Source: a virus (Duplodnaviria > Heunggongvirae > Uroviricota > Caudoviricetes). From it: 13,687 nt of DNA. Position numbers and translations under genes: made by a program. Below, piece after piece: positions 1-13,687 of the stretch (positions within the stretch are counted from its first letter, which is position 1; each line of letters starts with the position of its first letter). The stretch lies in IMG/VR virus record IMGVR_UViG_2526164652_000005; one strand, written 5' to 3'. A model generated the notes under the pieces. It saw nothing but the letters and a program-made list of their open reading frames with translations. It did not search any database and was not told where the DNA came from.

Positions 1-288
1 TCAATGGTTGGCGTCATTATCTTTTTCTCTTTCTGAACGTGAATATTGCGGTGGACGGTTCATCAGCTGTGGGGCAAGACGTTTTGCCACCTGAAGAATA
101 ACCACCACCGCAGCGGGAAGCATGAGCAAAACACCGAGAAAAATCATCAGAATCTGCACTTCTGGCCGAGAAAATGGCTCAGGCAGCGACAGGGAGTCGC
201 TTACCGACAGCAGAGCCACCGCCAGTAGCATCATTCCGATAAATTCCAGTATCAACACGCCTTTAGGCAATTTACCGATCGCGCGCAT
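1..288 (-). CDS. ybjC: small inner-membrane protein YbjC (95 aa), complete; stop codon at 1-3
   Basis: Translation matches remembered E. coli YbjC; hydrophobic two-helix profile; divergent from grxA as in E. coli. Confidence 0.8.
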   Translation of the reverse strand: MRAIGKLPKGVLILEFIGMMLLAVALLSVSDSLSLPEPFSRPEVQILMIFLGVLLMLPAAVVVILQVAKRLAPQLMNRPPQYSRSEREKDNDANH

Positions 289-447
289 ACGCTTCCCTCT
301 GCAAAGTGAGCCTTCAGTCTAAAACTTTTCACTGTATTGTGTTTAACAGTTATAGCTTTTAGCAATTAATGCAACAGGTTAAACCTACTTTCAGCGAATA
401 CATTTTAGCGTGATCATTACAGGCATAAATCTATGAGGAGAGAAATA
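289..447. promoter_or_regulatory. Divergent ybjC / grxA promoter region
   Basis: 159-bp AT-rich spacer between divergent starts; GAGGAG Shine-Dalgarno at 435-440 before the grxA ATG at 448. grxA is a known OxyR target, but I could not confidently delineate the OxyR motif by eye. Confidence 0.45.
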
Positions 448-705
448 ATGCAAACCGTTATTTTTGGTCGTTCGGGTTGCCCTTACTGTGTGCGTGCAAA
501 AGATCTGGCTGAGAAATTGAGCAATGAACGCGATGATTTTCAGTATCAGTATGTAGATATTCGTGCGGAAGGGATCACTAAAGAAGATCTACAACAAAAG
601 GCAGGTAAACCCGTAGAAACCGTGCCGCAGATTTTTGTCGATCAGCAACATATCGGCGGCTATACCGATTTTGCTGCATGGGTGAAAGAAAATCTGGACG
701 TCTGA
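448..705 (+). CDS. grxA: glutaredoxin 1 (85 aa)
   Basis: Near-identical to remembered E. coli GrxA (MQTVIFGRSGCPYCVRAKDL...), CPYC active site. The track ORF begins at an upstream in-frame ATG (433), but the SD at 435-440 supports ATG 448. Confidence 0.93.
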   Translation: MQTVIFGRSGCPYCVRAKDLAEKLSNERDDFQYQYVDIRAEGITKEDLQQKAGKPVETVPQIFVDQQHIGGYTDFAAWVKENLDV

Positions 706-714
706 TCGTCTGAC

Positions 715-747
715 AAGCCCTCGCGTTGAGGGCTTTACTGATTTTTT
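715..747 (+). terminator. Putative intrinsic terminator after grxA
   Basis: Stem aagccctc (715-722) / gagggctt (728-735) with 5-nt loop; T6 run at 742-747, not immediately adjacent to the stem. Confidence 0.4.
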
Positions 748-1112
748 CTGTGCTGTGGTTTAAACAAACTACTGATAAATAAGAAACACAGTGCCCCCAG
801 CGCACACCAGAACACCGCGCTTAGTAACCATGCCAGCTCTTGCCAGAATGAGCGCGTCGGTGAAAAAAACAGCCGCATAATGAGCATTGAACAGGGTGCC
901 GCCAGCATTGCGCCAAATAGAGGTTTCAGGACTTCTCTACGCTGTGAAAAGAAACTGGCAACAGCTCCAGGAAGAATGAAAAACAGCAAGCCGATTTCAG
1001 GATGCCCGGCAGCCCGAAAAGCGCCTTTCATGTGCGTCGCCAGAAAAAGGCACACCACAATGAAGAGGACAAAACAGCAGATTGCCCCCGCCCAACGTTG
1101 TTTATGTTTCAC
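735..1112 (-). CDS. ybjM: inner-membrane protein YbjM (125 aa)
   Basis: Translation matches remembered YbjM; multi-helix hydrophobic profile; conserved position between grxA and ybjL. Confidence 0.8.
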   Translation of the reverse strand: MKHKQRWAGAICCFVLFIVVCLFLATHMKGAFRAAGHPEIGLLFFILPGAVASFFSQRREVLKPLFGAMLAAPCSMLIMRLFFSPTRSFWQELAWLLSAVFWCALGALCFLFISSLFKPQHRKNQ

Positions 1113-1381
1113 TCGTTCCTCCTGACACTGCGTCTATCGAACACATTTTTCGCCAGTGTGGCGTTCAGTAAGATAAAGCCGCTTCGCATTCCATGCTAAT
1201 ATAGGCCAACGAAATTCATATAGCCGTTGATACCTAATGTGATTACACTAGTAAAATATATTGTTACTTTACTATCGTTTAGGTGCGCTGAATGAATCTG
1301 CGCCCTGAATTCTGGTAAAAAACATTATCGTAAATTACCATTTCTTTCAACAGCTTACTAGTAAACAAGAAGTTAGCCTCC

Positions 1382-3067
1382 GTGAATATAAACGTCGCCG
1401 AATTGTTAAATGGGAATTACATTCTGTTATTATTTGTGGTCCTCGCGCTTGGGCTATGTCTCGGAAAGTTACGACTTGGTTCGATCCAACTGGGTAATTC
1501 CATTGGCGTTTTAGTCGTATCGCTGTTATTAGGCCAACAACATTTCAGCATTAACACCGATGCGCTTAATCTTGGCTTTATGCTGTTTATTTTCTGCGTC
1601 GGGGTCGAAGCCGGACCGAACTTTTTTTCCATTTTTTTTCGCGATGGGAAAAATTACCTAATGTTAGCTCTGGTGATGGTTGGCAGTGCGCTGGTGATCG
1701 CCTTAGGGTTAGGTAAGCTGTTTGGCTGGGATATTGGCCTGACGGCCGGTATGTTAGCAGGCTCTATGACGTCGACACCGGTTCTGGTCGGTGCTGGCGA
1801 TACACTGCATCATTCCGGCATGGAAAGCAGGCAGCTCTCACTGGCACTGGATAATCTGAGCCTCGGGTATGCCTTAACCTATTTAATCGGTCTGGTGAGT
1901 TTGATTGTTGGTGCGCGTTACTTGCCGAAATTGCAGCATCAGGACTTACAGACCAGCGCCCAGCAAATCGCCCGCGAACGTGGCCTGGACACTGATGCCA
2001 ACCGTAAGGTTTATTTACCGGTGATCCGCGCCTATCGCGTCGGCCCGGAGCTGGTGGCCTGGACCGACGGCAAAAATCTGCGTGAACTGGGTATTTATCG
2101 ACAAACCGGCTGCTACATTGAACGTATTCGACGTAACGGGATTCTGGCAAATCCAGACGGTGATGCCGTGCTACAAATGGGCGATGAAATAGCGTTGGTA
2201 GGCTATCCCGACGCCCATGCCCGACTCGATCCCAGCTTCCGTAACGGTAAAGAAGTTTTCGATCGTGACCTTCTCGACATGCGTATCGTCACTGAAGAAG
2301 TGGTCGTTAAAAACCATAACGCTGTAGGTAAACGTCTCGCACAACTGAAGTTGACCGATCACGGTTGCTTCCTTAACCGCGTCATTCGTAGCCAGATTGA
2401 GATGCCGATAGATGACAACGTCGTGCTTAACAAAGGTGACGTTTTACAAGTCAGCGGTGATGCCCGTCGCGTAAAAACCATCGCCGATCGCATCGGCTTT
2501 ATCTCGATTCACAGCCAGGTCACTGACCTGCTGGCATTTTGCGCCTTCTTTGTTATTGGGCTGATGATCGGGATGATCACCTTCCAGTTCAGCACATTCA
2601 GTTTCGGCATGGGGAACGCTGCCGGGTTGTTATTCGCCGGAATTATGCTGGGCTTTATGCGTGCTAACCACCCGACCTTCGGTTACATTCCGCAAGGTGC
2701 ATTAAGCATGGTGAAAGAGTTCGGCTTGATGGTGTTTATGGCAGGCGTTGGTCTGAGCGCCGGTAGCGGTATTAATAACGGCCTGGGCGCGATTGGCGGT
2801 CAGATGTTGATTGCCGGATTAATTGTCAGTCTTGTGCCCGTGGTTATCTGTTTCTTGTTCGGTGCTTATGTATTGCGAATGAACCGCGCACTGTTGTTCG
2901 GCGCAATGATGGGCGCACGCACCTGCGCGCCGGCAATGGAGATCATCAGTGATACAGCTCGCAGTAACATCCCTGCGCTGGGCTATGCGGGCACCTACGC
3001 AATCGCCAACGTCCTGCTGACGCTGGCAGGGACAATCATCGTCATGGTATGGCCAGGATTAGGATAA
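1382..3067 (+). CDS. ybjL: putative transporter YbjL (561 aa), AAE-family permease with two central TrkA-C/RCK_C domains; GTG start
   Basis: Full-length match to remembered YbjL; membrane domains flank a soluble central region; synteny with ybjM and grxA. Confidence 0.88.
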
Positions 3068-3179
3068 AACTGAAGTTGCCCTGAAAATGAAATTTTTTTG
3101 CACAACCGCAGAACTTTTCCGCAGGGCATCAGTCTTAATTAGTGCCACTGCTTTTCTTTGATGTCCCCATTTTGTGGAG

Positions 3180-3222
3180 CCCATCAACCCCGCCATTTCG
3201 GTTCAAGGTTGATGGGTTTTTT
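3180..3222 (+). terminator. Putative intrinsic terminator downstream of ybjL
   Basis: 10-bp stem cccatcaacc (3180-3189) / ggttgatggg (3207-3216) followed directly by T6 (3217-3222). Confidence 0.5.
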
Positions 3223-3302
3223 GTTGCCTGAAATTTAAGCTGTTTAAAATCATGATGTTAGAAGCACTGTTTTTTAACGATGGCGACAAAATGGCGGCAG
3301 CG

Positions 3303-3521
3303 TCAAAGAGAGAGCGCCACCTGTCCTGATTTCATTGGATGCGGCTGAACCGGATTTGACTCTTTTGGCGTTGCAATCGAACGAACAAAAGTTTCATGGG
3401 TAACAAAAGTATGGCTGCAGTTAATGTTCTGGCACTGGTTGTAACGCTCTTTGGTCAATGAAGATACCTGAAAACTGCTGCGAGTATGGGCGGCACTTCC
3501 ACACAGTGGGCAAATCATCAT
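3303..3521 (-). CDS. ogr: Ogr/Delta-family zinc-finger late-gene transcriptional activator (72 aa)
   Basis: CPLCG...CQNINC zinc-finger motif and overall similarity to P2 Ogr. GGGAGA SD sits 9 nt upstream of the ATG at 3521; the track ORF starts at an upstream GTG (3554), which I judge less likely. Confidence 0.8.
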   Translation of the reverse strand: MMICPLCGSAAHTRSSFQVSSLTKERYNQCQNINCSHTFVTHETFVRSIATPKESNPVQPHPMKSGQVALSL

Positions 3522-3611
3522 TTTTCGAGTTCTCCCAATTTTTGCTAAATTCACAATAATGATACCGAATTATTCCATTTTGCAAACTTAAAAGTTCTCC
3601 ATTGCGAAGAA

Positions 3612-4712
3612 TCATTCCATTTCGAAATCATCAATCCTCACTTCAAGCTCCAGACTGGTCGTAAAACCATTATCCGGGCTTACGGTATGCGTCAGAGTCG
3701 TAATGGTCCATTCCGCATCATCTATCGGCTGTTTAAAGCCACTGACTTTCACTGGCATTTCCGTGTAGAGATCTGCCCGCCCTTCCGCCAGTTGTAACGA
3801 GAATGACGCAACGCCGCGTTGCAGGCGTTCCCACTGCATTTTCGCCGCTCGTTCGGTGTTGCTCCGGTTGGCATAAGTGCGATTAAGTACCAGCACGTTT
3901 TCATCCGTACCCACCAGGTAATCGCCCTGCTTCGCTTCCGGCTCTTTCTTCTGCTTCTTAGTCCTGCGCTTACGCTTCACCGTGGTGCTTTCTTTCTTCG
4001 CGGGTTCGCGGGTATGCAACCAGCTGGCAATTACGCCCGTGTAGGCTCCGCGATCTGCCAGGGTAAAGCGGTGACTGTCGCCGTCCTTACGTGTGATAGT
4101 GATAACCGGTAGTGGTTTACCGCTGGCGCTTTTACCCTGTCCCTGCCGGATGAATACCAGATTGCCATTTTTCACCGACGCAATAGCACCGTACTGGCGC
4201 GCCAGCCGCATCAGAAAACTGCCGTCACTCTCATTGGTCTGGTCTATATGCTCCACGGGTTTATCCGACAGGTCTTCACCCAATGCCATCTTCAGTTTGT
4301 GCCGCGCAGATATTTCCTTCACGACTTCCCCAACGGTGGTCTTGTGCCACGATTTTTCACGGCGGGTATTCAGCGTTTCACGAAAATCAGCACTTCGCGC
4401 CCGGATAGTCAGGCGGTCCGGTGCGCCAGTGTGTTCAATCTCGTCCACCGTGAATGCCCCTTTCGGGAAAAGCGGCTGCCCCTTCCACCCCAGCGCCAGC
4501 GTAATGACCGCACCACGGCGCGGCAGCACGATTTTTCCGTCGGCGTCGTCCAGCTCCAGATCAAGCTGGTCCGCTTCAAATCCCCGATTGTCCGTCAGCG
4601 TCAGACTCATCAGGCGGTTATCCAGCACAGTAGTGATATCCCTGCCCTCAATACTGATGCTGAATGCAGGAGTTTTGTTGCCTTTGTTAAGCAGTTCAGA
4701 GCTGAAATTCAC
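3612..4712 (-). CDS. D: P2 gpD-family tail protein (366 aa); GTG start overlapping the U stop (GTGA)
   Basis: Similarity to P2 gpD; conserved position between U and ogr; translational coupling to U. Confidence 0.85.
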   Translation of the reverse strand: MNFSSELLNKGNKTPAFSISIEGRDITTVLDNRLMSLTLTDNRGFEADQLDLELDDADGKIVLPRRGAVITLALGWKGQPLFPKGAFTVDEIEHTGAPDRLTIRARSADFRETLNTRREKSWHKTTVGEVVKEISARHKLKMALGEDLSDKPVEHIDQTNESDGSFLMRLARQYGAIASVKNGNLVFIRQGQGKSASGKPLPVITITRKDGDSHRFTLADRGAYTGVIASWLHTREPAKKESTTVKRKRRTKKQKKEPEAKQGDYLVGTDENVLVLNRTYANRSNTERAAKMQWERLQRGVASFSLQLAEGRADLYTEMPVKVSGFKQPIDDAEWTITTLTHTVSPDNGFTTSLELEVRIDDFEME

Positions 4713-5194
4713 GACAGCAGCCCTCCCACCGTTTTACTGATATCGCTTAATGCAGATGTTGCCGTGTCCTGCAGATTATTCAGCTGCGCACTGAGATCAC
4801 CGAACATATCGGACAGGGATTCATCCACCCGTTTGAGCGACAGGGTGAACTCAATCCGGCGCGGCATACCGTCGCGGAAAAACTCCGTTTTAGTCTGATT
4901 CAGTCCCTCAATCACATACATGCCGTAAATCGTGCCGCTGCCTTCAATCAGGGGCCATGCTTTCCCCTGTTCTGCCATCTGCTCAAGTGCCAGCAACGAC
5001 AGCCTGCCGCCTGTTATCTCCGGCATAAGAACACCGGAAAGCGTCAGCATGTCGTTGTCCGGTCCCAGAAACTGCGTGGACGGACGACGATTTACCCGGC
5101 TGTTAGCCGCATGTCGCCAGCTGCGTTGATACTGCAGTTCCTGATACGGCACGGTGCGCAGCATAAACACGTACAATCCCAGCACCATCATCAT
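4709..5194 (-). CDS. U: P2 gpU-family tail protein (161 aa)
   Basis: Similarity to P2 gpU (MMVLGL..., QRSWRH motif); ATGA start/stop overlap with the end of T. Confidence 0.85.
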   Translation of the reverse strand: MMMVLGLYVFMLRTVPYQELQYQRSWRHAANSRVNRRPSTQFLGPDNDMLTLSGVLMPEITGGRLSLLALEQMAEQGKAWPLIEGSGTIYGMYVIEGLNQTKTEFFRDGMPRRIEFTLSLKRVDESLSDMFGDLSAQLNNLQDTATSALSDISKTVGGLLS

Positions 5195-8100
5195 GCGTCG
5201 TATCCCCCCTGATCGCTGTAGTTACTCCTGGCTTTTGCCTTCAACCTGCGTTCACGTTCATCAAGCTGGCGGGCCACCTCCCGCGCAATATCCTGCGCAC
5301 TTTGTCCTGGCTGTGTCTGGATGATGATCTGCGTCGGTGCTTCAATCCGGTAAATGGGCGGCACAGTAGCTGCACGACTCACCATCGCTTCACCGCCTTT
5401 CGCGGGAAGCGCCAAAGGATGCAACGGTGGAAGCTCTGCTGGCGCGGCAGCAACGCCCATCATTCCGGCGACAACGGCAGCCAGTGCAGCTGTATTTCTC
5501 CGGCTGGTCACGTTTGCCGGGCCGTTAACAATTTCCGGCCCGTTTTCACCGACGATGCCAAACTGCCCACGCGGGATATAGCCGCCGCTGTCATACATAC
5601 CCGCAAAGCCATATCCCCATGACGGAAAATCACCCGATGGCATCATCACTTTACCGTCTGCATTCACCGTCGCAGGTTGCTGACTCGTCACGCTTTCCGG
5701 TAGTTTTGCCTTTGCGGCCTCTTTACTGACAATGCCGAGTTTCTCCAGCAACCAGGAAACGCCGGATTTCAGGGAGTCCAGCGGATGCATGACCATATTC
5801 AGCCCTTCCGCCAGTGCCTCCCCGAATCGCCGCCCCATTGCCGCTGCACTCTGCAGTTCGGCAGAGGTCGACTTAACGGGCGTCAGCAGATCAGTAAACC
5901 AGCCCCACAGCGCCTGTACTTTGTCGCCAATCCACTGAAACACGGGCTTAAGCGGTTCGAATGCAGCACTGATGGGACCTGCCGCCGCTTTGAATCCTTC
6001 CACCACGCCACCGAGAAATGCGGTGATGGGTTGCCAGTATTTCCAGACAACCAGCGCCACGCCCGCCAGTGCAGTAACCACAAGACCTATCGGACTGAGC
6101 AGAGCACCTAACAGACCAGATACGGCATACAGGGCAACGCGCAGCATCGCCAGCGGACCGGATGCCAGCACACGCAGCACCGCGCCTGCGGCAGCCAGTC
6201 CACCGCGTAGTGCTGCCAGTGGATTCATAAACATCACAGCAACCGCACGTAACCCGGATAATCCAGACCGCAAAAGTGCAACCGGCGCACCTGCTACCGT
6301 TTTCAGGACATTTCCCGTCAGTGATGCCGTGCGGCGCAAAGACGACAACGGCGCAGTAAGTAAACCTGCGGCGTTGCCCGATGAAGCAAGCCCGCGTCGC
6401 AGCAGTGCCTGTGGTGCGCCAGCCAGGACAACGCACTGCTGGTTCGAGTTACTGCTGCCGTAACGGAAGGTAACATTTTGATACCCAGCACAGAGAATCC
6501 CAGACGGATCACTGCCAGCGGCCCCAGCACTGCAGCCAGCGCCACCGCTAAGGTGCCGAGGCCCACGGTAACGGCAGCCACCACAGCGGCTACTTTCATC
6601 AGTGTGCCTGTCAGTTCCGGGTTAGCTTCCACCCAGCGACGCAACGCCCCTGTGACGCTTTTCACCGTGAACAGAATATCCATCAGCGGCTGGCGCAGCG
6701 TTTCGCCCAGGCTGCTGAAGGTGTTCTGCGCTCCGGTTTTGACCAGCAACCACTGAGCAGAAAGTGAGTCCTTGTTGATGTCGGATTCTTTCTGCATGGA
6801 ACCGAGCGCATCATTGCCCGTTGTCAGTTTTAGCTGGCGCTGCAGTTCCGGAAGGTTGTTTGCCAGTTTCGCTGCGTCATCGCCAAACTCTTTACCAAAC
6901 AACATGGTCATGGCAGACAGGCGCTTATCCTGCGGCAGTGCGTTCACCTTCTCCAGCACGCGCTGGATGGTTCCCATCGCATCCTTCGTCATCTGCTTTT
7001 CAATCACTTCAGGATTGAGTTTCAGCAGATTCATCCCTTCAAAGAAACTCTTGCTCTGCATGGTGGCAATGGACAATTCACGCACCATCGCGTTTGCTGC
7101 ACTGGCTGCAACCTCTGGCGCAGCGCCCAGTGTCAGGAAGGTGGAACCCAGCGCCGCCGCTTTACGATAATCCAGACGATCAGCCACACCGCCCAGGCGT
7201 TGCATGACATCAATGATGTCTACCCCTTTCGACATGGCGTTATCATCCAGATAGTTCAGCGCATCACCGAGCTGTTCAATATTGCGGGTAGGGATTTTGT
7301 AGAGCTGGGCGATTTTCCCCAGACTTTCTGACAGTTCATCCGCTGGCAGCTCAAAGGCTGTTGCCGCCTTTGCTGCCGTACTGGCGAAGGCCAGCAGGTC
7401 ACGTTTCTGGTCCTCCCAGCTGTCGTCAGGGTTTGCAACGTTCATACGCGCACCACCTTCAACCAGTGCAGCGAAGTCCACCGCACCGTTTTCCATCGGC
7501 AACTGTTCGCTGGCAGCTTTGATGGCATCCTGCATTTCATAAAAACGTGCAGTGCGGTTGCCATTATCGTCACGCAGACCATTGACCTGCTTTGTCACAC
7601 CTTTCATGGCATCTTCCATGCTGGTATAGCTTTTTACTGCCGCCATCACTGGCGTCCCCATTGCCAGCCCTGCCGCCGTGGTGGTGGCTCCGGCTCCTGC
7701 GATGCGATCGCGCACCTCCAGCGAACGGGCATAACTGGCACGCGCTGCATTCATCCTGCGCTGAGCTTCCCCCAGTCGCTTCAGCCGCGCCTCCTGTTTC
7801 GACAGTTCCTGGTTATAACGTGATGTTTCACGGGCTAAACGGGCAGTTGCTCCCGCATCATCTTTCGCAGAAATTCCCGCCCGGTACAGTTCTGCACGCA
7901 CAAGCGCCGTTTGCTTCTGCAAATATTTTTGTTGTTCTTCCAGGCGTTGGACTGCCAGCGTTTGCCGACCTAAAGCCACAAGGTGCCGTTGTGATGGTTG
8001 TTCCATCGCTTCCAGCTCAGAACTAAGCAAATTTGCCTTCTGTCTGGCATAGTTCAGCCTGTCGCCTAACTTTTTGTTATCGGCCTGCAGCTTGCGAAAT

Positions 8101-8264
8101 TTTTCCAGGCTGTTACCCGCCTGATTGAGTTGCTTTAATGCGTCACGGGAGTTTCTGATTGCGCCAGCCAGCTCTTTCGAACTGGCCTGTGCAGCACGGA
8201 ATGGGCGGGTGAGTTTGTCAACCGCATTAAGAATGACCTGCAGGCGCAGGTTATTATCACTCAT
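5191..8264 (-). pseudogene. T: Tail tape-measure protein gpT, reading frame disrupted: N-terminal ORF 6318-8264 and C-terminal ORF 5191-6348 in a different frame
   Basis: N-terminal ORF begins MSDNNLRLQ..., coiled-coil rich, P2 gpT-like. Its last ~35 codons are low-complexity out-of-frame-looking sequence. The other frame carries proline-terminated 21-22 aa repeats that continue to the U overlap and is open upstream to a stop at 6622-6624. Together these imply a -1 register change around 6380-6500. Confidence 0.7.
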
Positions 8265-8693
8265 CGTTAGCCCCGCTTCTCTGAATCGCTTTATACCGCC
8301 ATTCCAGCACTTCGGTCAGCGGCATAACGTCAGTAACGGATGGCGGCCAGTGAAAGATGGTGGCGATATCAGCCACCAGATCGTCAACCGTCAGGCTGTC
8401 GGTAAACCGGCAAGCACCGACTTCTTCAACAAAAAAGTGACAACCTCAACCGACATAGCGGTGAGATCTGCCGAGTCCATCTCTGCAATTTCTTGTGCGG
8501 TCAGTGCCGGACTGGAAATGCAGGGGATCACGGTCATCATCGCGTTCACATCCATATCCATAATGGCCTGCAGGCGTATACCGCGCAGCGCACCGGACTG
8601 CGGTTTACGCAGCACAATTTCGGTAATTTCTGTTTTACCGCGCATGATGGGGGTATCCAGTTGAATGGTCTTTTCAGTCTGCTTATCGCTCAT
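8257..8693 (-). CDS. E': E+E' fusion product via programmed -1 ribosomal frameshift (about 145 aa)
   Basis: The -1 frame is open from the slippery site to a TGA at 8257-8259, ending ...RSGANDE and overlapping the T start codon. Geometry matches the P2 E/E' arrangement (analogous to lambda G/GT). Confidence 0.55.
8391..8693 (-). CDS. E: P2 gpE-family tail assembly chaperone (100 aa)
   Basis: Position immediately upstream of T and similarity to P2 gpE; contains the slippery heptamer near its 3' end. Confidence 0.8.
   Translation of the reverse strand: MSDKQTEKTIQLDTPIMRGKTEITEIVLRKPQSGALRGIRLQAIMDMDVNAMMTVIPCISSPALTAQEIAEMDSADLTAMSVEVVTFLLKKSVLAGLPTA
8430..8436 (-). other. Slippery heptamer T_TTT_TTG for the E/E' -1 frameshift
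   Basis: Minus-strand codons ACT TTT TTG in the E frame (plus-strand caaaaaa at 8430-8436). Confidence 0.6.
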
Positions 8694-8747
8694 TTTATTG
8701 TCCTGTAAATTGGGTTCTGGCGCGGTATCCCGCGCCGTTCAGATACA

Positions 8748-9263
8748 TCAGAGGCCGAGGGCGTTGCGGTGCGCTTCCATCAGGTCCACACCGTCCACAA
8801 TTTCCACCATGTTGATAAGGTCCACTTCATAGAGCACCTCACCATTGATGGTCAGCTTCGCGTAGCTGTTGGTACTGGTCACTTTGGTGGTGTTGCTTTC
8901 GCCCGTCTTCCACTCGCCGGAATCCACTTCTTTGTGACGTCCTCGCACCACAAGCTCCACAGCCTGCACTTCCCCGGTATCGTCACGCTGGATAGAGCCA
9001 GTAAAGCGCAGCTGGATGCCATCCACAGTGGCTTTGCCCATCTGCTTAAACAGCAGCAGTTCAGTACCACCAATGGAAAATTCTGTGTCCAGAGCACTGT
9101 CATCAAGCCCCAGATCCACATCCACCGCCCCCGGCATTCCGCCGCCGCGATACTTCTCATATTTGCGGGTGAATTTCGGCAGCGTCAGCGACTCAACGAT
9201 CCCCTGCCAGTTGTTCCCGTCGTTAAACAGGTTCAGGTGTTTTAATTTGCGTGGTAAAGCCAT
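8748..9263 (-). CDS. FII: P2 gpFII-family major tail tube protein (171 aa)
   Basis: MALPRKLKHLNLFNDGNN... matches the P2 FII N-terminus; located between FI and E. Confidence 0.88.
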   Translation of the reverse strand: MALPRKLKHLNLFNDGNNWQGIVESLTLPKFTRKYEKYRGGGMPGAVDVDLGLDDSALDTEFSIGGTELLLFKQMGKATVDGIQLRFTGSIQRDDTGEVQAVELVVRGRHKEVDSGEWKTGESNTTKVTSTNSYAKLTINGEVLYEVDLINMVEIVDGVDLMEAHRNALGL

Positions 9264-9272
9264 GTTGTCCCC

Positions 9273-10445
9273 TTACGCGCTGACCTGGCTGGCGAAATTC
9301 ACCAGGTACTGATCGGTGATGCGCTGACGCAGCATCAGGTTTTCAAGTGGCGGCACTGGCGTGTAGTCGTAGTCGATAGTGAGTTTCCCGGCTTTCAGAG
9401 TGTCTTTGTCGTTCACCGACTCGTCCAGCCAGCAATCACCACCAATGAGATACCCCTGACTGACCAGGCTGCGCATTTTGGCGCGGATACCTTCGATAAT
9501 GTCGCGGGCCAGCGACGGATTCAGCGGTTTGTCCACTGCCCACATGTGCGCTTCTGCCATCGTGTCCATCAGTACCTGCGCCGTGCGGGTGTAGTTTTCG
9601 AAGGCAAAGAGCGGGTCATCGCTCAGACAGCGGGAACCCCAGAAGCGGAAACCGTCTTTGCGGATAAGCGTGGTAACGTCGTTCTGGTTAAGCAGACCTG
9701 CATCGGTTGCCGGGTCCTGCAGATCCCAGAACACATCAGCAGAAATTCCGGTGACACCGTTCACGCCCACGTTGGACAGGCTTTTGTGCCATCCGGTCTG
9801 CTCATCAATTTTGGCGCGCAGACCGAGCGCACGGGCGGTGGCATATGCCGTTGCTTCGGCATTCAGCACCGTGTCCCAGCCCGTAAAGTCAGGCCAGATC
9901 AGCATCCCTTCGCGCTGGCTGAAGTTTTCACGGTAAGTGATCGCCTCCTGTACCGTCTTGCAGCCATACGCTGACAGGTAAGCAAACCCACGCAGGCTTT
10001 GCGCCACGCTCAGCAACTCAGTCGCAACGGCTTTGTTATCGTGGCCTGGCACGCCGAGAATGCGCGGTTTAACGCCGAGCTGTGACTGGGCAGATAACAG
10101 GGCTTTCATACCTGTTTTTTTACCTTCAGCAGTCACTGCGCCGATGATATTGGTCGTGGTTTCGTCTTCCGTTTCACCCTGCGGCACACGCACAACAACG
10201 GTCACGGGTTTTGCCTGGTCAGCGATGGCATCCAGCGAACGGGCCAGAGTACCGGACTCACCCGCTTTACCGCTGGCAGTCAGCACATCAGTGATCAGCA
10301 CGGGTTTATTAAGAGGAAACATTTTTGCATCGGCATCATCGCCCGTGCAGACCATACCCACAATGGCGGTGCTCACCGTGGTAATGGATCGGGTGCCTTC
10401 GTTGACTTCAACAACGCGCACCCCGTGGTGGTAATCCTGAGCCAT
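9273..10445 (-). CDS. FI: P2 gpFI-family contractile tail sheath protein (390 aa)
   Basis: Strong similarity to P2 FI along its length (DYHHGV..., [13 protein letters not shown]..., [14 protein letters not shown]...). AGGAGG SD lies 9 nt upstream of the ATG. Confidence 0.9.
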
Positions 10446-10521
10446 AGTGGCGAACCTCCTGATTGGATTAGGCTTCGCCCTATGTTGAAGTGATTGTGCC
10501 TGACAAACAGCTAAGCGCAGT

Positions 10522-10539
10522 TGTACCGTTATTCATACA
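10522..10539 (-). promoter_or_regulatory. Candidate Ogr-dependent late promoter element (TGT-N12-ACA dyad) upstream of FI
   Basis: tgtaccgttattcataca has the TGT-N12-ACA dyad characteristic of P2/P4 late promoters and lies about 85 bp upstream of the FI start. Confidence 0.4.
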
Positions 10540-10587
10540 AAATGACGGTATTTGTCTGCTTGCAGGGATAATCAACATAATGCTGAT

Positions 10588-11160
10588 TCAGGGGGATTCA
10601 TTGCTCTTATTTGCCGGAAATTTTCTATAAATTGTGGAAACACCTACATCAAAAATCAGTGCAATACGCTGTCTTGATTCTCCGGCCTCGAGTAAACGTC
10701 CAATCTGTGCCCACTGTTCGGTGATCAACTTAGGACGGCGTCCACCTACTCTGCCTTTGGCGCGAGCTGCAGCCAGCCCCGCCTTGGTACGTTCAACTAT
10801 CAGTTCGCGCTCCATTTCAGCCAGGGCCCCCATGACATGAAAAAAGAAACGGCCCATTGGGGTACTGGTATCAATACTGTCAGTCAGGCTTCGGAAATTC
10901 ACGCCACGCTGGCGCAGCTCTTCTATCAGCGTAACGAGATGCCGCATACTGCGCCCCAACCTGTCCAGCTTCCAGACAACCAGAGTGTCACCTGCCGATA
11001 ATGTCCTGAGCAGTTTTTTCAGTCCCGGTCTGTCGGACTTAGTGCCACTGATTTTGTCCTCAAAAATCCGCTCACATCCCGCGCAGTTCAGTGCATTACG
11101 TTGCAAATCGGTGTTCTGGTCATTTGTTGACACGCGTACATAGCCAATAAGCATGATCAA
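10588..11160 (-). CDS. Serine-recombinase DNA invertase, Hin/Gin/Pin/Cin family (190 aa)
   Basis: Very high similarity to Hin/Pin: catalytic-serine motif GYVRVSTNDQ, conserved core, C-terminal helix-turn-helix. True start may be the second in-frame ATG. Confidence 0.9.
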   Translation of the reverse strand: MIMLIGYVRVSTNDQNTDLQRNALNCAGCERIFEDKISGTKSDRPGLKKLLRTLSAGDTLVVWKLDRLGRSMRHLVTLIEELRQRGVNFRSLTDSIDTSTPMGRFFFHVMGALAEMERELIVERTKAGLAAARAKGRVGGRRPKLITEQWAQIGRLLEAGESRQRIALIFDVGVSTIYRKFPANKSNESP

Positions 11161-11172
11161 TCCCCTGAATAA

Positions 11173-11472
11173 AAACCGGGGATGATGCCAGTTAGCCGTT
11201 ATCTCTGCATTTTCATAAACGTTGGTTTGGGAGAAGCGGCTAAAAGAAATGTAGGGACAGGGGCGAATCAGATACCTGATATGGGTAGTTTTATGCTTTC
11301 TGCTTCAGTTCCTGGATATCAAAAATTGCCATCCGGTTTAATTATTCAATGGGGGCCAATTGATGTTCCGCTGACGTCTCAGGACACAGTAACCTATTTT
11401 CCGATTGCATTTCCGAATAGATGTCTGCGGGTATTTGCGACTCAGGATTACACTCCCGGCAGTGCAAATGTT
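11173..11472 (+). pseudogene. Truncated variable tail-fibre C-terminal segment (alternative Sv'-type cassette), cut by IS1
   Basis: Reading frame open from 11173, passes through the crossover site and runs into the IS1 left end at 11472/11473; the last 8 codons and stop of the tracked ORF are IS1 sequence. Tail-fibre assignment is by context and a weak remembered resemblance ([14 protein letters not shown]). Confidence 0.4.
11210..11235. other. Candidate Hin-family crossover site (hix/gix/pix-like 26-bp imperfect palindrome)
   Basis: ttttcataaacg-tt-ggtttgggagaa; reverse complement ttctcccaaaccaacgtttatgaaaa resembles hixL TTCTTGAAAACCAAGGTTTTTGATAA. Lies between the invertase gene and the divergent tail-fibre fragment, inside the latter's reading frame. 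Confidence 0.4.
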
Positions 11473-11495
11473 GGTAATGCTGCCAACTTACTGAT
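11473..11495. repeat. IS1 left terminal inverted repeat
   Basis: ggtaatgctgccaacttactgat; matches the reverse complement of the right end with few mismatches. Confidence 0.85.
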
Positions 11496-11527
11496 TTAGT
11501 GTATGATGGTGATTTTAAGGTGCTTGC

Positions 11528-11803
11528 GTGGCTTCCATTTCCATCAGATGTCCTTCCTGCTCCGCTACTGAAGGCGTGGTGCGTAACGGCAAAAGCACTG
11601 CCGGACATCAGCGCTATCTCTGCTCTCATTGCCGTAAAACATGGCAACTACAGTTCACTTACACCGCCTCTCAGCCCGGTACGCACCAGAAAATCATTGA
11701 TATGGCCATGAATGGCGTCGGATGTCGCGCCAGTGCACGCATTATGGGCGTTGGCCTCAACACGGTTTTACGTCACTTAAAAAACTCAGGCCGCAGTCGG
11801 TAA
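11528..11803 (+). CDS. insA: IS1 InsA (91 aa)
   Basis: Matches remembered IS1 InsA ([23 protein letters not shown]...). Confidence 0.95.
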
Positions 11804-12225
11804 CCTCGCGCATACAACCGGGCAGTGATGTGATTGTCTGCGCTGAAATGGACGAACATTGGGGCTACGTCGGTGCTAAATCACGTCAGCGCTGGCTGTT
11901 TTACGCGTATGACAGGATACGGAGGACGGTTGTGGCGCACGTCTTCGGTGAACGCACTCTGGCCACACTGGAGCGTCTTCTGAGCCTGCTGTCGGCCTTT
12001 GAGGTCGTGGTATGGATGACGGATGGCTGGCCGCTGTATGAATCACGCCTGAAGGGAAAGCTGCACGTTATCAGCAAGCGTTACACTCAGCGCATTGAGC
12101 GACATAATCTGAATCTGAGACAACATCTGGCAAGGCTGGGACGGAAGTCACTGTCGTTCTCAAAATCGGTGGAGCTGCATGACAAGGTCATCGGGCATTA
12201 TCTGAACATAAAACACTATCAGTAA
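11722..12225 (+). CDS. insB: IS1 insB' frame; expressed as the InsAB' transposase by -1 frameshift at A6C (11779-11785)
   Basis: Matches remembered IS1 InsB; the ttaaaaaac motif lies in the insA/insB overlap. Confidence 0.9.
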
Positions 12226-12240
12226 GTTGGAGTCATTACC
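12218..12240. repeat. IS1 right terminal inverted repeat
   Basis: atcagtaagttggagtcattacc. Confidence 0.85.
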
Positions 12241-12242
12241 GT

Positions 12243-12551
12243 GTTCGTGAACTCGGTGATGCTAGTGTTCCTTTTTCGTTCGATGTTCATGCGATGATTT
12301 ATAGTGATGATGCACCATCATTAGAAAATCATCTGCATAAAGTCTTCAACGAAAAACAGGTCAATAAAATTAACTCACGAAAAGAGTTTTTCAACGTAAA
12401 TATTAAAGAAATTAAGTCTGTTATTGAAGATATGAACATCAACGCACAATGGACAATGTTTGCGGAAGCGAAAGAATATAGAGAGTCACTGGCGATTGAG
12501 CAAGAGCGCAAAGCAGCAACTTCCGCCAACGATGAACTGCATGTTGCTTAG
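12243..12551 (+). pseudogene. 3' fragment of a T5orf172-domain (GIY-YIG-like) protein gene, truncated at its 5' side by IS1
   Basis: Frame is open directly from the IS1 right end (...RVRELGDASVPFSFDVHAMIYSDDAPSLENHLHKVFNEKQVNKINSRKEFFNV...); this resembles the C-terminal T5orf172 motif. No start codon of its own until 12294. Confidence 0.5.
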
Positions 12552-12610
12552 CAATGTATGTTTCATAGTAATCACACATTGATTACTGGTTGTATATACA
12601 GTTAAATTTA

Positions 12611-12634
12611 GCCCTCTGATATGAGGGCTTTTTT
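12611..12634 (+). terminator. Intrinsic terminator-like hairpin immediately upstream of int
   Basis: Stem gccctc (12611-12616) / gagggc (12623-12628), 6-nt loop, then T6 (12629-12634). Confidence 0.5.
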
Positions 12635-13687
12635 ATGGCAGTACGAAAACTCACCACAGGAAAATGGCTTTGCGAATGTTACCCCGCCGGACGTAGTGGA
12701 CGTCGTGTGCGTAAACAATTCGCCACCAAAGGCGAAGCTCTGGCTTTTGAGCGTCACACGATGGAAGAAACCGAAGCAAAGCCCTGGCTGGGTGAATCAG
12801 TGGATCGTCGAACACTGAAAGACGTGGTTGAACTATGGTTCAAACTACATGGTAAATCTCTGACAGCTGGGCAGCATGTCTATGACAAATTGCTGTTGAT
12901 GGTTGACGCTCTGGGCAATCCTCTTGCAACCGATCTCACCTCTAAAATGTTTGCCCACTATCGAGATAAACGCCTGACAGGCGAGATCTACTTCAGCGAG
13001 AAATGGAAGAAAGGAGCAAGCCCGGTCACCATTAACCTGGAGCAAAGCTATCTAAGTAGTATTTTTAGCGAACTATCCCGTCTGGGCGAATGGTCGTATC
13101 CGAACCCACTGGAGAACATGCGAAAATTCACCATCGCAGAAAAAGAGATGGCATGGCTTACCCATGAGCAGATTGTTGAATTGCTGGCTGATTGCAAACG
13201 TCAGGACCCAATTCTGGCACTGGTAGTTAAGATATGCTTAAGCACAGGCGCACGCTGGCGTGAAGCCGTAAATCTTACTCGCTCACAGGTGACCAAATAC
13301 CGAATTACCTTTGTCAGAACGAAGGGGAAGAAAAACAGAAGCATCCCTATCAGTAAAGAGCTTTACGAAGAGATCATGGCGCTTGATGGGTTCAATTTCT
13401 TCACAGACTGCTATTTTCAATTTTTATCCGTGATGGAAAAAACGTCTATCGTGCTCCCTCGCGGTCAACTCACACACGTTCTGCGCCATACGTTTGCGGC
13501 GCACTTCATGATGTCGGGTGGAAACATTCTGGCCTTACAAAAAATTCTCGGACACCACGATATAAAAATGACTATGCGTTACGCACATCTGGCACCGGAT
13601 CATCTGGAAACGGCGCTCCGTTTCAATCCTCTGGCAACGCTGCCAAGTGGCGACAAAGTGGCGGCAGCGGTTGGCATTACCCCGTAA
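12635..13687 (+). CDS. int: P2-family tyrosine integrase (350 aa), complete; TAA at the window end
   Basis: Similarity to P2 Int (MAIKKLDDGRYEV... versus MAVRKLTTGKWLCE...); conserved catalytic region LSTGARW, RHTFAAHFM, LGHHDIKMTMRYAHL. Confidence 0.88.
   Translation: MAVRKLTTGKWLCECYPAGRSGRRVRKQFATKGEALAFERHTMEETEAKPWLGESVDRRTLKDVVELWFKLHGKSLTAGQHVYDKLLLMVDALGNPLATDLTSKMFAHYRDKRLTGEIYFSEKWKKGASPVTINLEQSYLSSIFSELSRLGEWSYPNPLENMRKFTIAEKEMAWLTHEQIVELLADCKRQDPILALVVKICLSTGARWREAVNLTRSQVTKYRITFVRTKGKKNRSIPISKELYEEIMALDGFNFFTDCYFQFLSVMEKTSIVLPRGQLTHVLRHTFAAHFMMSGGNILALQKILGHHDIKMTMRYAHLAPDHLETALRFNPLATLPSGDKVAAAVGITP

Follow-up and report, generated by a model that had tools for sequence, protein, structure and literature searches.

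The question raised by this locus is how a complete IS1 element came to lie between a truncated tail-fibre cassette and a truncated nuclease gene, with no target-site duplication around it. The window, meaning the whole stretch of 13,687 nucleotides that was analysed, is Shigella flexneri DNA; its identity is 100% with strain K-272 and 99.99% with strain 89-141. Positions 2294-13687 matched contig AFGX01000012.1 at 100% identity and chromosome CP026803.1 at 99.99% identity. Two papers assign these records to S. flexneri K-272 (GCA_000213715.2) and S. flexneri 89-141 serotype Y, respectively. The arrangement of left flank, IS1 and right flank is shared by the draft genome of S. flexneri K-227 (AFGY).

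The element between the two flanks has the length and ends that are characteristic of IS1, which is about 768 bp long with imperfect terminal inverted repeats of about 23 bp starting GGTRATG. Its features were as follows.

11473-12240, plus strand: complete IS1, 768 bp, with the left inverted repeat (IRL) at 11473-11495 and the right inverted repeat (IRR) at 12218-12240
11528-11803, plus strand: insA, open frame (Pfam Zn_ribbon_InsA/HTH_Tnp_IS1)
11722-12225, plus strand: insB frame, open (Pfam DDE_Tnp_IS1)
11779-11785, plus strand: A6C slip site AAAAAAC, intact

The terminal inverted repeats are 23 nt each and 87% complementary. The coding region has the insA/insB' organisation with a -1 frameshift at the A6C site, and the InsA zinc-ribbon and HTH domains and the DDE_Tnp_IS1 domain were recognised in the IS1 ORFs using Pfam (PF03811, PF12759 and PF03400). 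The NCBIfam profile transpos_IS1 was covered at positions 1-81 and 75-199 by the two ORFs. The IS1 sequence does not differ among K-272, K-227 and 89-141 (100% identity), and its identity with the IS1 that lies between nfsA and ybjC in E. coli PSJ-12 is 99.35%.

The 9 bp immediately outside the element are GCAAATGTT on the left (11464-11472) and GTGTTCGTG on the right (12241-12249), identical at 3 of 9 positions. Comparison of the flanks revealed no target-site duplication of 7-12 bp around IS1, and no 5-mer or longer sequence was shared between the two 25-bp flanks. Since the 8-9 bp duplication that marks a simple IS1 insertion is absent, the present context is not that of a simple insertion; the element itself is still IS1. 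An earlier note, made from the sequence alone, had reached the same view from the differing 9-bp flanks. Re-inspection of the window found its IS1 coordinates and flank sequences to be exact, and a search for an 8-9 bp direct repeat at the IS1 ends, which would have contradicted it, gave none.

Both flanks of the IS1 belong to a P2/186-like prophage. The window runs through ybjC, grxA, ybjM and ybjL and then enters the prophage from the ogr end, passing ogr, D, U, T, E, the tail assembly chaperone, FII and FI before reaching a serine invertase. The surviving backbone features, with the integrase beyond the right flank, are listed below.

3212-3225, no strand: att core ATGGGTTTTTTGTT at the ogr-side prophage end; the second copy lies just past int, outside the window
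3303-3521, minus strand: ogr/Delta late-gene activator (same coordinates in the 99.6%-identical relative L015; PF04606 for the called gene in L006)
3612-4712, minus strand: gpD (ORF; Pfam Phage_GPD; annotation of relatives)
4709-5194, minus strand: gpU (ORF; Pfam Phage_P2_GpU; annotation of relatives)
5191-8264, minus strand: tape-measure gene gpT, inactivated (ORFs 5191-6348 and 6318-8264)
8391-8693, minus strand: tail assembly chaperone (ORF; Pfam Phage_TAC_7)
8748-9263, minus strand: tail tube gpFII (ORF; Pfam Phage_tube)
9273-10445, minus strand: tail sheath gpFI (ORF; Pfam Phage_sheath)
12635-13687, plus strand: intact prophage tyrosine integrase, 350 aa (Pfam Int_N and Phage_integrase)

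Hundreds of E. coli genomes carry an intact version of this prophage at the ybjL-rcdA site. The gene order ogr-D-U-T-E-FII-FI ... cI-int, the att cores at both ends and the ybjL/rcdA site place it among the P2/186-like prophages (Peduoviridae), and the genes that survive in the window keep the order and orientation of the intact relatives. Intact prophages at this site encode exactly the same integrase protein. The att core is a 14-bp exact repeat shared by the ybjL-ogr spacer and the int-rcdA spacer of the S. flexneri locus (L005). The phage record OM835953, in which int is followed directly by ogr as in a circular phage form, aligns to both prophage arms, and its alignment to the window begins exactly at 3212, the position of the att core. 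This record (OM835953.1, L040; deposited as 'Klebsiella phage KP12 clone KP12_3') is 95-98% identical to the E. coli/Shigella P2-like prophage. It is classified under Vequintavirinae, apparently through mislabelling or co-assembly of a host prophage.

The tape-measure gene carries a lesion of its own. A 4-bp loss at about position 6417 splits gpT into 347/385-aa and 648-aa ORFs, and alignment with the intact 3078-bp gene of FDAARGOS_1248 (L015; 99.6% identical) gave a single 4-bp gap in a GCCA repeat. This inactivating loss of one GCCA unit is independent of the IS1-bounded deletion described below, and the prophage remnant is therefore decaying further. The invertase and sheath genes of the K-227 draft are each split into two ORFs (L018 5083-5648 and 5791-6962), which could reflect further decay or homopolymer sequencing errors of an older assembly.

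The left flank of the IS1 is a truncated cassette of the pin-type invertible tail-fibre segment, with an invertase gene before it.

10588-11160, minus strand: intact Pin/Gin-type serine DNA invertase (Pfam Resolvase, E 2e-53, and HTH_7)
11185-11472, plus strand: truncated gp53-like tail-fibre C-terminal cassette; the left deletion breakpoint follows 11472
11210-11235, plus strand: crossover site, the sole survivor of the invertible tail-fibre segment

The cassette was identified as Gp53-like_C (PF21882, E 1.5e-14) over profile positions 1-46 of 84. It keeps about 96 of the 130 codons of the intact cassette in L001, and the alignment to L001 stops at 11472-11474, bearing out the earlier description of the left flank as a truncated prophage tail-fibre cassette. 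Invertible tail-fibre segments of the Pin/Gin/Cin type include the P segment of e14, the G segment of Mu and the C segment of P1. The intact relatives of the window resemble them in having an invertase, annotated as "recombinase family protein" in all of them, beside alternative tail-fibre C-terminal cassettes and assembly genes, with short inverted sites. In these prophages an invertible segment of about 1.9 kb comes after the invertase and is flanked by inverted crossover sites, each 27-nt site having its inverted partner 1.8-1.9 kb away (L001 19214-19240 and 21116-21142; L015 11214-11240 and 13055-13081). The IS1 of the window lies inside this segment. Unlike the Pin/Gin/Cin systems, the window has lost the distal crossover site and most of the segment, and no second crossover site was found in it even at up to 3 mismatches. 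An invertase with a single site is a disabled remnant of a Pin/Gin-type switch, and with the rest of the segment deleted the switch is frozen and the invertase is an orphan without a local substrate.

The 200 bp to the left of the IS1 (11273-11472) are 100% identical to a gp53-like gene beside yfdK in the CPS-53 prophage of E. coli K-12 (L038 2667-3302). Unrelated prophages therefore share this tail-fibre cassette, which circulates among them.

The right flank opens, directly after the IS1, with the end of a second interrupted gene.

12241-12551, plus strand: 3' remnant of a SNIPE/PD-lambda-1 gene, last 102 codons; the right deletion breakpoint precedes 12241

The parent of this remnant is a 558-aa protein containing DUF4041 and T5orf172/MUG113 (a GIY-YIG nuclease), and it is interrupted at about codon 456, within T5orf172 (residues 427-520). 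The remnant matches MUG113/T5orf172 partially, over positions 30-100 of the 101 in the Pfam T5orf172 profile. The PADLOC model PD-Lambda-1 gave an E value of 9e-45 for the remnant and 5e-120 for an intact 558-aa relative, which was matched end to end. The flank is 99.9% identical to E. coli L73, from position 20001 of locus L004. In L73, ECCHD184, a Logan contig and two deposited phage records the gene occupies the cI-int interval of the same prophage. The earlier note had described this flank as the middle of an unrelated T5orf172-domain gene; the T5orf172 identity was confirmed using Pfam, while the gene is not unrelated, being cargo of the same prophage between cI and int, and the break is not in its middle, being at about 82% of its length (around codon 456 of 558). 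That the T5orf172 gene belongs to the same prophage strengthens the reading of the junction as a simple deletion.

PD-lambda-1 now goes by the name SNIPE; it is a GIY-YIG nuclease anchored in the membrane that cleaves phage DNA as the DNA is injected, and its defence requires both DUF4041 and the nuclease active site (PMC13190303). The intact 558-aa relative of the right-flank gene resembles SNIPE in its layout of DUF4041 followed by a C-terminal T5orf172/GIY-YIG domain. The remnant in the window differs from SNIPE, which combines a transmembrane segment, DUF4041 and a complete GIY-YIG domain, in that it retains residues from about 457 to 558 and lacks the transmembrane region, DUF4041 and the first 29 or so residues of the nuclease domain. 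Since DUF4041 and the active site are needed for defence (PMC13190303), the remnant is expected to be inactive.

The slot between cI and int holds variable cargo across the prophage family and looks like a hotspot for defence genes. It contains SNIPE/PD-lambda-1 in ECCHD184 (L003 39145-40821) and L73 (L004 18635-20311), and an AAA-ATPase and DUF4276 pair in AMSHJX01 (L016 10019-11766). This pair was first read as PARIS-like and is assigned by PADLOC to HEC-01. The slot is occupied by a 63-aa YdcA-like ORF in FDAARGOS_1248 (L015 35135-35326) and by a gene for a 324-aa protein in another genome (L029 3945-4919).

When the two flanks were located in relatives without the IS1, the breakpoints were found 25.0-25.9 kb apart, collinear and in the same orientation within a single prophage of about 35 kb. 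The separations were as follows.

E. coli L73: about 25.2 kb
E. coli ECCHD184: about 25.9 kb
OM835953, 34,795 bp: about 25.0 kb, or 72% of the genome

This comparison with genomes carrying the intact prophage had been proposed in the earlier note, together with the suggestion that most of the prophage had probably been removed, and about 72% of it is indeed missing relative to the intact relatives. Relatives in which the two flanks are contiguous without IS1, which would have argued the other way, were looked for and none was seen. The flank alignments end within 1-2 bases of the IS1 termini. Collinear flanks, extra DNA between them in the IS-less relatives (L027, L003 and L040) and homology that stops at the IS1 are the geometry of an IS-mediated deletion: the endpoints coincide with the termini of the element, as predicted for a deletion made by transposase or by IS homology. 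The functional-looking IS1 therefore sits exactly on the junction of an internal prophage deletion of about 25 kb, equivalent to about 72% of the phage genome, which runs from the gp53-like cassette of the invertible segment to about codon 456 of the SNIPE gene adjoining int. The lost interval contained the remaining tail-fibre and baseplate genes, the lysis, head and terminase genes, the variable cargo region, the replication genes, the control genes cII/fil, cI and apl (cox), and four-fifths of SNIPE; a small gene beside cI that is labelled Cox in one record was among them. The genes kept are ogr, D, U, T, E, FII, FI, the invertase and int, together with both att cores.

A different deletion at the same locus was observed in ON470620.1 (L039 1-5185 and 30706-38938), deposited as 'Escherichia phage vB_EcoM-813R9', which represents a prophage region of a chromosome, bordered on either side by host genes. 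In this record gpH abuts ybjT and the arm from sheath to ogr is missing, and the deletion is a second, independent route of decay.

Taken with the surrounding geometry, the junction is almost certainly the product of an IS1-associated deletion within one prophage, made either by adjacent deletion or by recombination between two IS1 copies. The earlier note had named these same two processes from the signature of the junction, and its reading is supported by the geometry of the intact relatives, which fits both. The chance that a one-ended adjacent deletion was the route taken is put at about even. By this route, a single IS1 would have inserted at one of the two sites in the prophage and then entered the other site of that chromosome by intramolecular, one-ended (replicative) transposition; the interval would have been deleted and a single IS1 left without a target duplication, the classical 'adjacent deletion'. 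The complete IS1, the absence of a duplication and the position of both flanks in one prophage, collinear and in the same orientation, are all consistent with this, and the route is slightly favoured by parsimony, as it takes two events rather than the three of the two-copy route. Further support comes from an IS1 evolution experiment in which 99% of 457 rearrangements were IS-associated, 363 of them deletions (PMC12065110). Against it, the end product is identical to that of direct IS1-IS1 recombination, so the sequence does not separate the two, and as no relative with IS1 at just one site was found among the E. coli genomes and contigs searched, the single-copy ancestor that is assumed is hypothetical.

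RecA-dependent homologous recombination between two independently inserted IS1 copies of like orientation, with one copy in the tail-fibre cassette and the other in the SNIPE gene, is given somewhat less than an even chance. The crossover would loop out the 25 kb and leave a hybrid IS1 whose left duplication came from one copy and whose right duplication came from the other, which is exactly the structure observed. Prophages are neutral targets in which several insertions can accumulate, and the high IS1 load of Shigella (PMC7373316) favours this route. The authors of the evolution experiment speculate that adjacent deletions cluster near 1 kb and deletions between ISs near 10 kb (PMC12065110). 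On these size classes a deletion of 25 kb, being tens of kb, fits the 'between ISs' class better. Three events are needed for this route instead of two, and no mosaic is visible in the IS1, though recombination between identical copies would leave none.

The intermediate expected of either route, with IS1 at one or both sites, was searched for in several collections. Queries of 240 bp, made of 200 bp of flank and 40 bp of IS1, were compared with 5,426 complete E. coli genomes; none had IS1 at either site, and the best matches covered the flank only (84%). E. coli matches that appeared to cover window positions 1-12240 were rejected as cases of IS1 at the same site, as their IS1 lies between nfsA and ybjC and the pieces had been joined by the tool. 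One degenerate pattern of 38 nt covering both junctions, verified on the window (2 of 2 matches) and on fetched loci, gave no match in the GTDB representative genomes or the JGI metagenome contigs; in the GTDB set Shigella is probably folded into one E. coli representative, the probable cause of this null result. Exact look-up of the sense chimeric ORF at 11182-11499 gave no record, and the antisense junction-spanning ORF at 11342-11647 was found only in K-272 and K-227. Exact look-ups of the 85-aa remnant ORF, the frameshifted tape-measure fragment and the integrase returned more carriers of the deletion as well as intact E. coli prophages, with no intermediate among them. IS1 was thus seen at neither site in the E. 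coli genomes, the GTDB and JGI contigs or the contigs with junction ORFs, which counts against the two-copy route. The search for other IS1 copies with matching flanks that the earlier note had suggested came up empty in the E. coli genomes and the two contig collections. As no relative with IS1 at one site was present there, the two routes are not told apart.

A more complex history is improbable. It would involve either a deletion across two tandem prophages at this site, which joined the left arm of one to the right arm of the next, or a deletion independent of IS1 followed by insertion of IS1 exactly at the junction. Tandem lysogens do exist, as E. coli FDAARGOS_1248 has two tandem copies of the prophage at ybjL-rcdA, and the two arms of the window have different closest relatives: the left arm is nearest to FDAARGOS_1248 (99.6%) and the right arm to the L73-type prophages (99.9%), whose left arms are only about 96% identical to the window. 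P2-like prophages are mosaic in any case, so differing best relatives for each arm are expected, and a tandem origin would still require an IS1-bounded deletion and would change only its size. A later insertion of IS1 at the junction would have produced a 9-bp duplication, which is absent. The tandem copies of FDAARGOS_1248 (L015 3303-36567 and 36732-46401) have their invertible tail-fibre segments in opposite orientations.

Very improbable is the proposal that the deletion was selected and not neutral, with the lethal lytic and replication modules removed together with SNIPE, which acts where phages inject at the inner membrane, and with int, the invertase and ogr kept for the host, or that the nuclease fragment of 85-102 residues is expressed and active. 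An assembly artefact, in which two contigs were misjoined through a collapsed IS1 repeat, was rejected and is effectively excluded, because several S. flexneri assemblies made independently have the same junction. Short-read assemblies of Shigella are often broken or misjoined at IS1, which is present in many copies, and several contigs do end within IS1 (L008, L009, L020 and L035), but the identical arrangement is present in the complete 4.48-Mb chromosome CP026803.1 and in the independent drafts K-272 and K-227, no contig of the lineage was found to extend either flank into the missing prophage DNA, and a 4.36-kb right-flank contig beginning at the junction was seen in at least 20 samples. 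In all, the left junction was present in 4 and the right junction in 7 independent assemblies, the carriers being one complete chromosome, two older drafts and short-read contigs that stop inside the IS1.

An IS1-associated deletion of this form has precedents. Adjacent deletions mediated by IS1 were reportedly described by Reif and Saedler in 1975 in the gal region of E. coli. The window resembles the gal-region and Shigella cases in that an IS1 is kept at the junction, the deletion starts from the exact end of the IS1, there is no duplication, the host is rich in IS1 and the surrounding DNA is otherwise collinear with undeleted relatives. It does not differ from them in kind and is a natural, lineage-fixed example. 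No other IS is as abundant in Shigella as IS1, and deletions linked to IS elements are an acknowledged form of genome decay there, held responsible for much of it (PMC7373316). The remnant also resembles the cryptic K-12 prophages CPS-53/KpLE1, e14 and Rac, which have kept int, att and scattered tail or invertase genes and lost the lysis, head and replication modules, and over 200 bp the cassette at its left breakpoint matches the yfdL/yfdK region of CPS-53 at 100% identity. It is unlike the K-12 cryptic prophages in having a P2/186-like (Peduoviridae) backbone at ybjL-rcdA, and in that its main loss can be assigned to one IS1-bounded event instead of an unknown series.

All components of the locus are of kinds that are already known, and together they amount to a genuine though unremarkable instance of prophage decay driven by an IS. 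This particular junction may be absent from the published literature, though it would be unsurprising to a specialist. No new mechanism or gene family is implied, and the locus matters little beyond bookkeeping. It does provide a clean natural example of IS1 turning an inducible P2-like prophage into a locked-in remnant in Shigella, as both att cores and int are kept and the genes for excision control, replication and lysis are gone. The same event destroyed a prophage-borne SNIPE/PD-lambda-1 anti-phage gene. The junction is also a stable marker specific to this lineage, and the S. flexneri clade that includes K-272, K-227 and 89-141 could be typed or dated with it.

Other IS elements were observed around the prophage site. 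Several E. coli genomes carry an IS1 between nfsA and ybjC (L002 6001-6769; L003 2363-3131), which places it 22 bp upstream of the start of the window. This IS1 is missing from the S. flexneri lineage, and nfsA directly adjoins ybjC in L017-L019. In S. flexneri the DNA downstream of the prophage has an IS4-family element separating ybjI from a gene in the position of ybjH (L005 14262-15608) and an IS3-family element interrupting dacC (L005 18952-20258), giving further IS damage within the same 20 kb.
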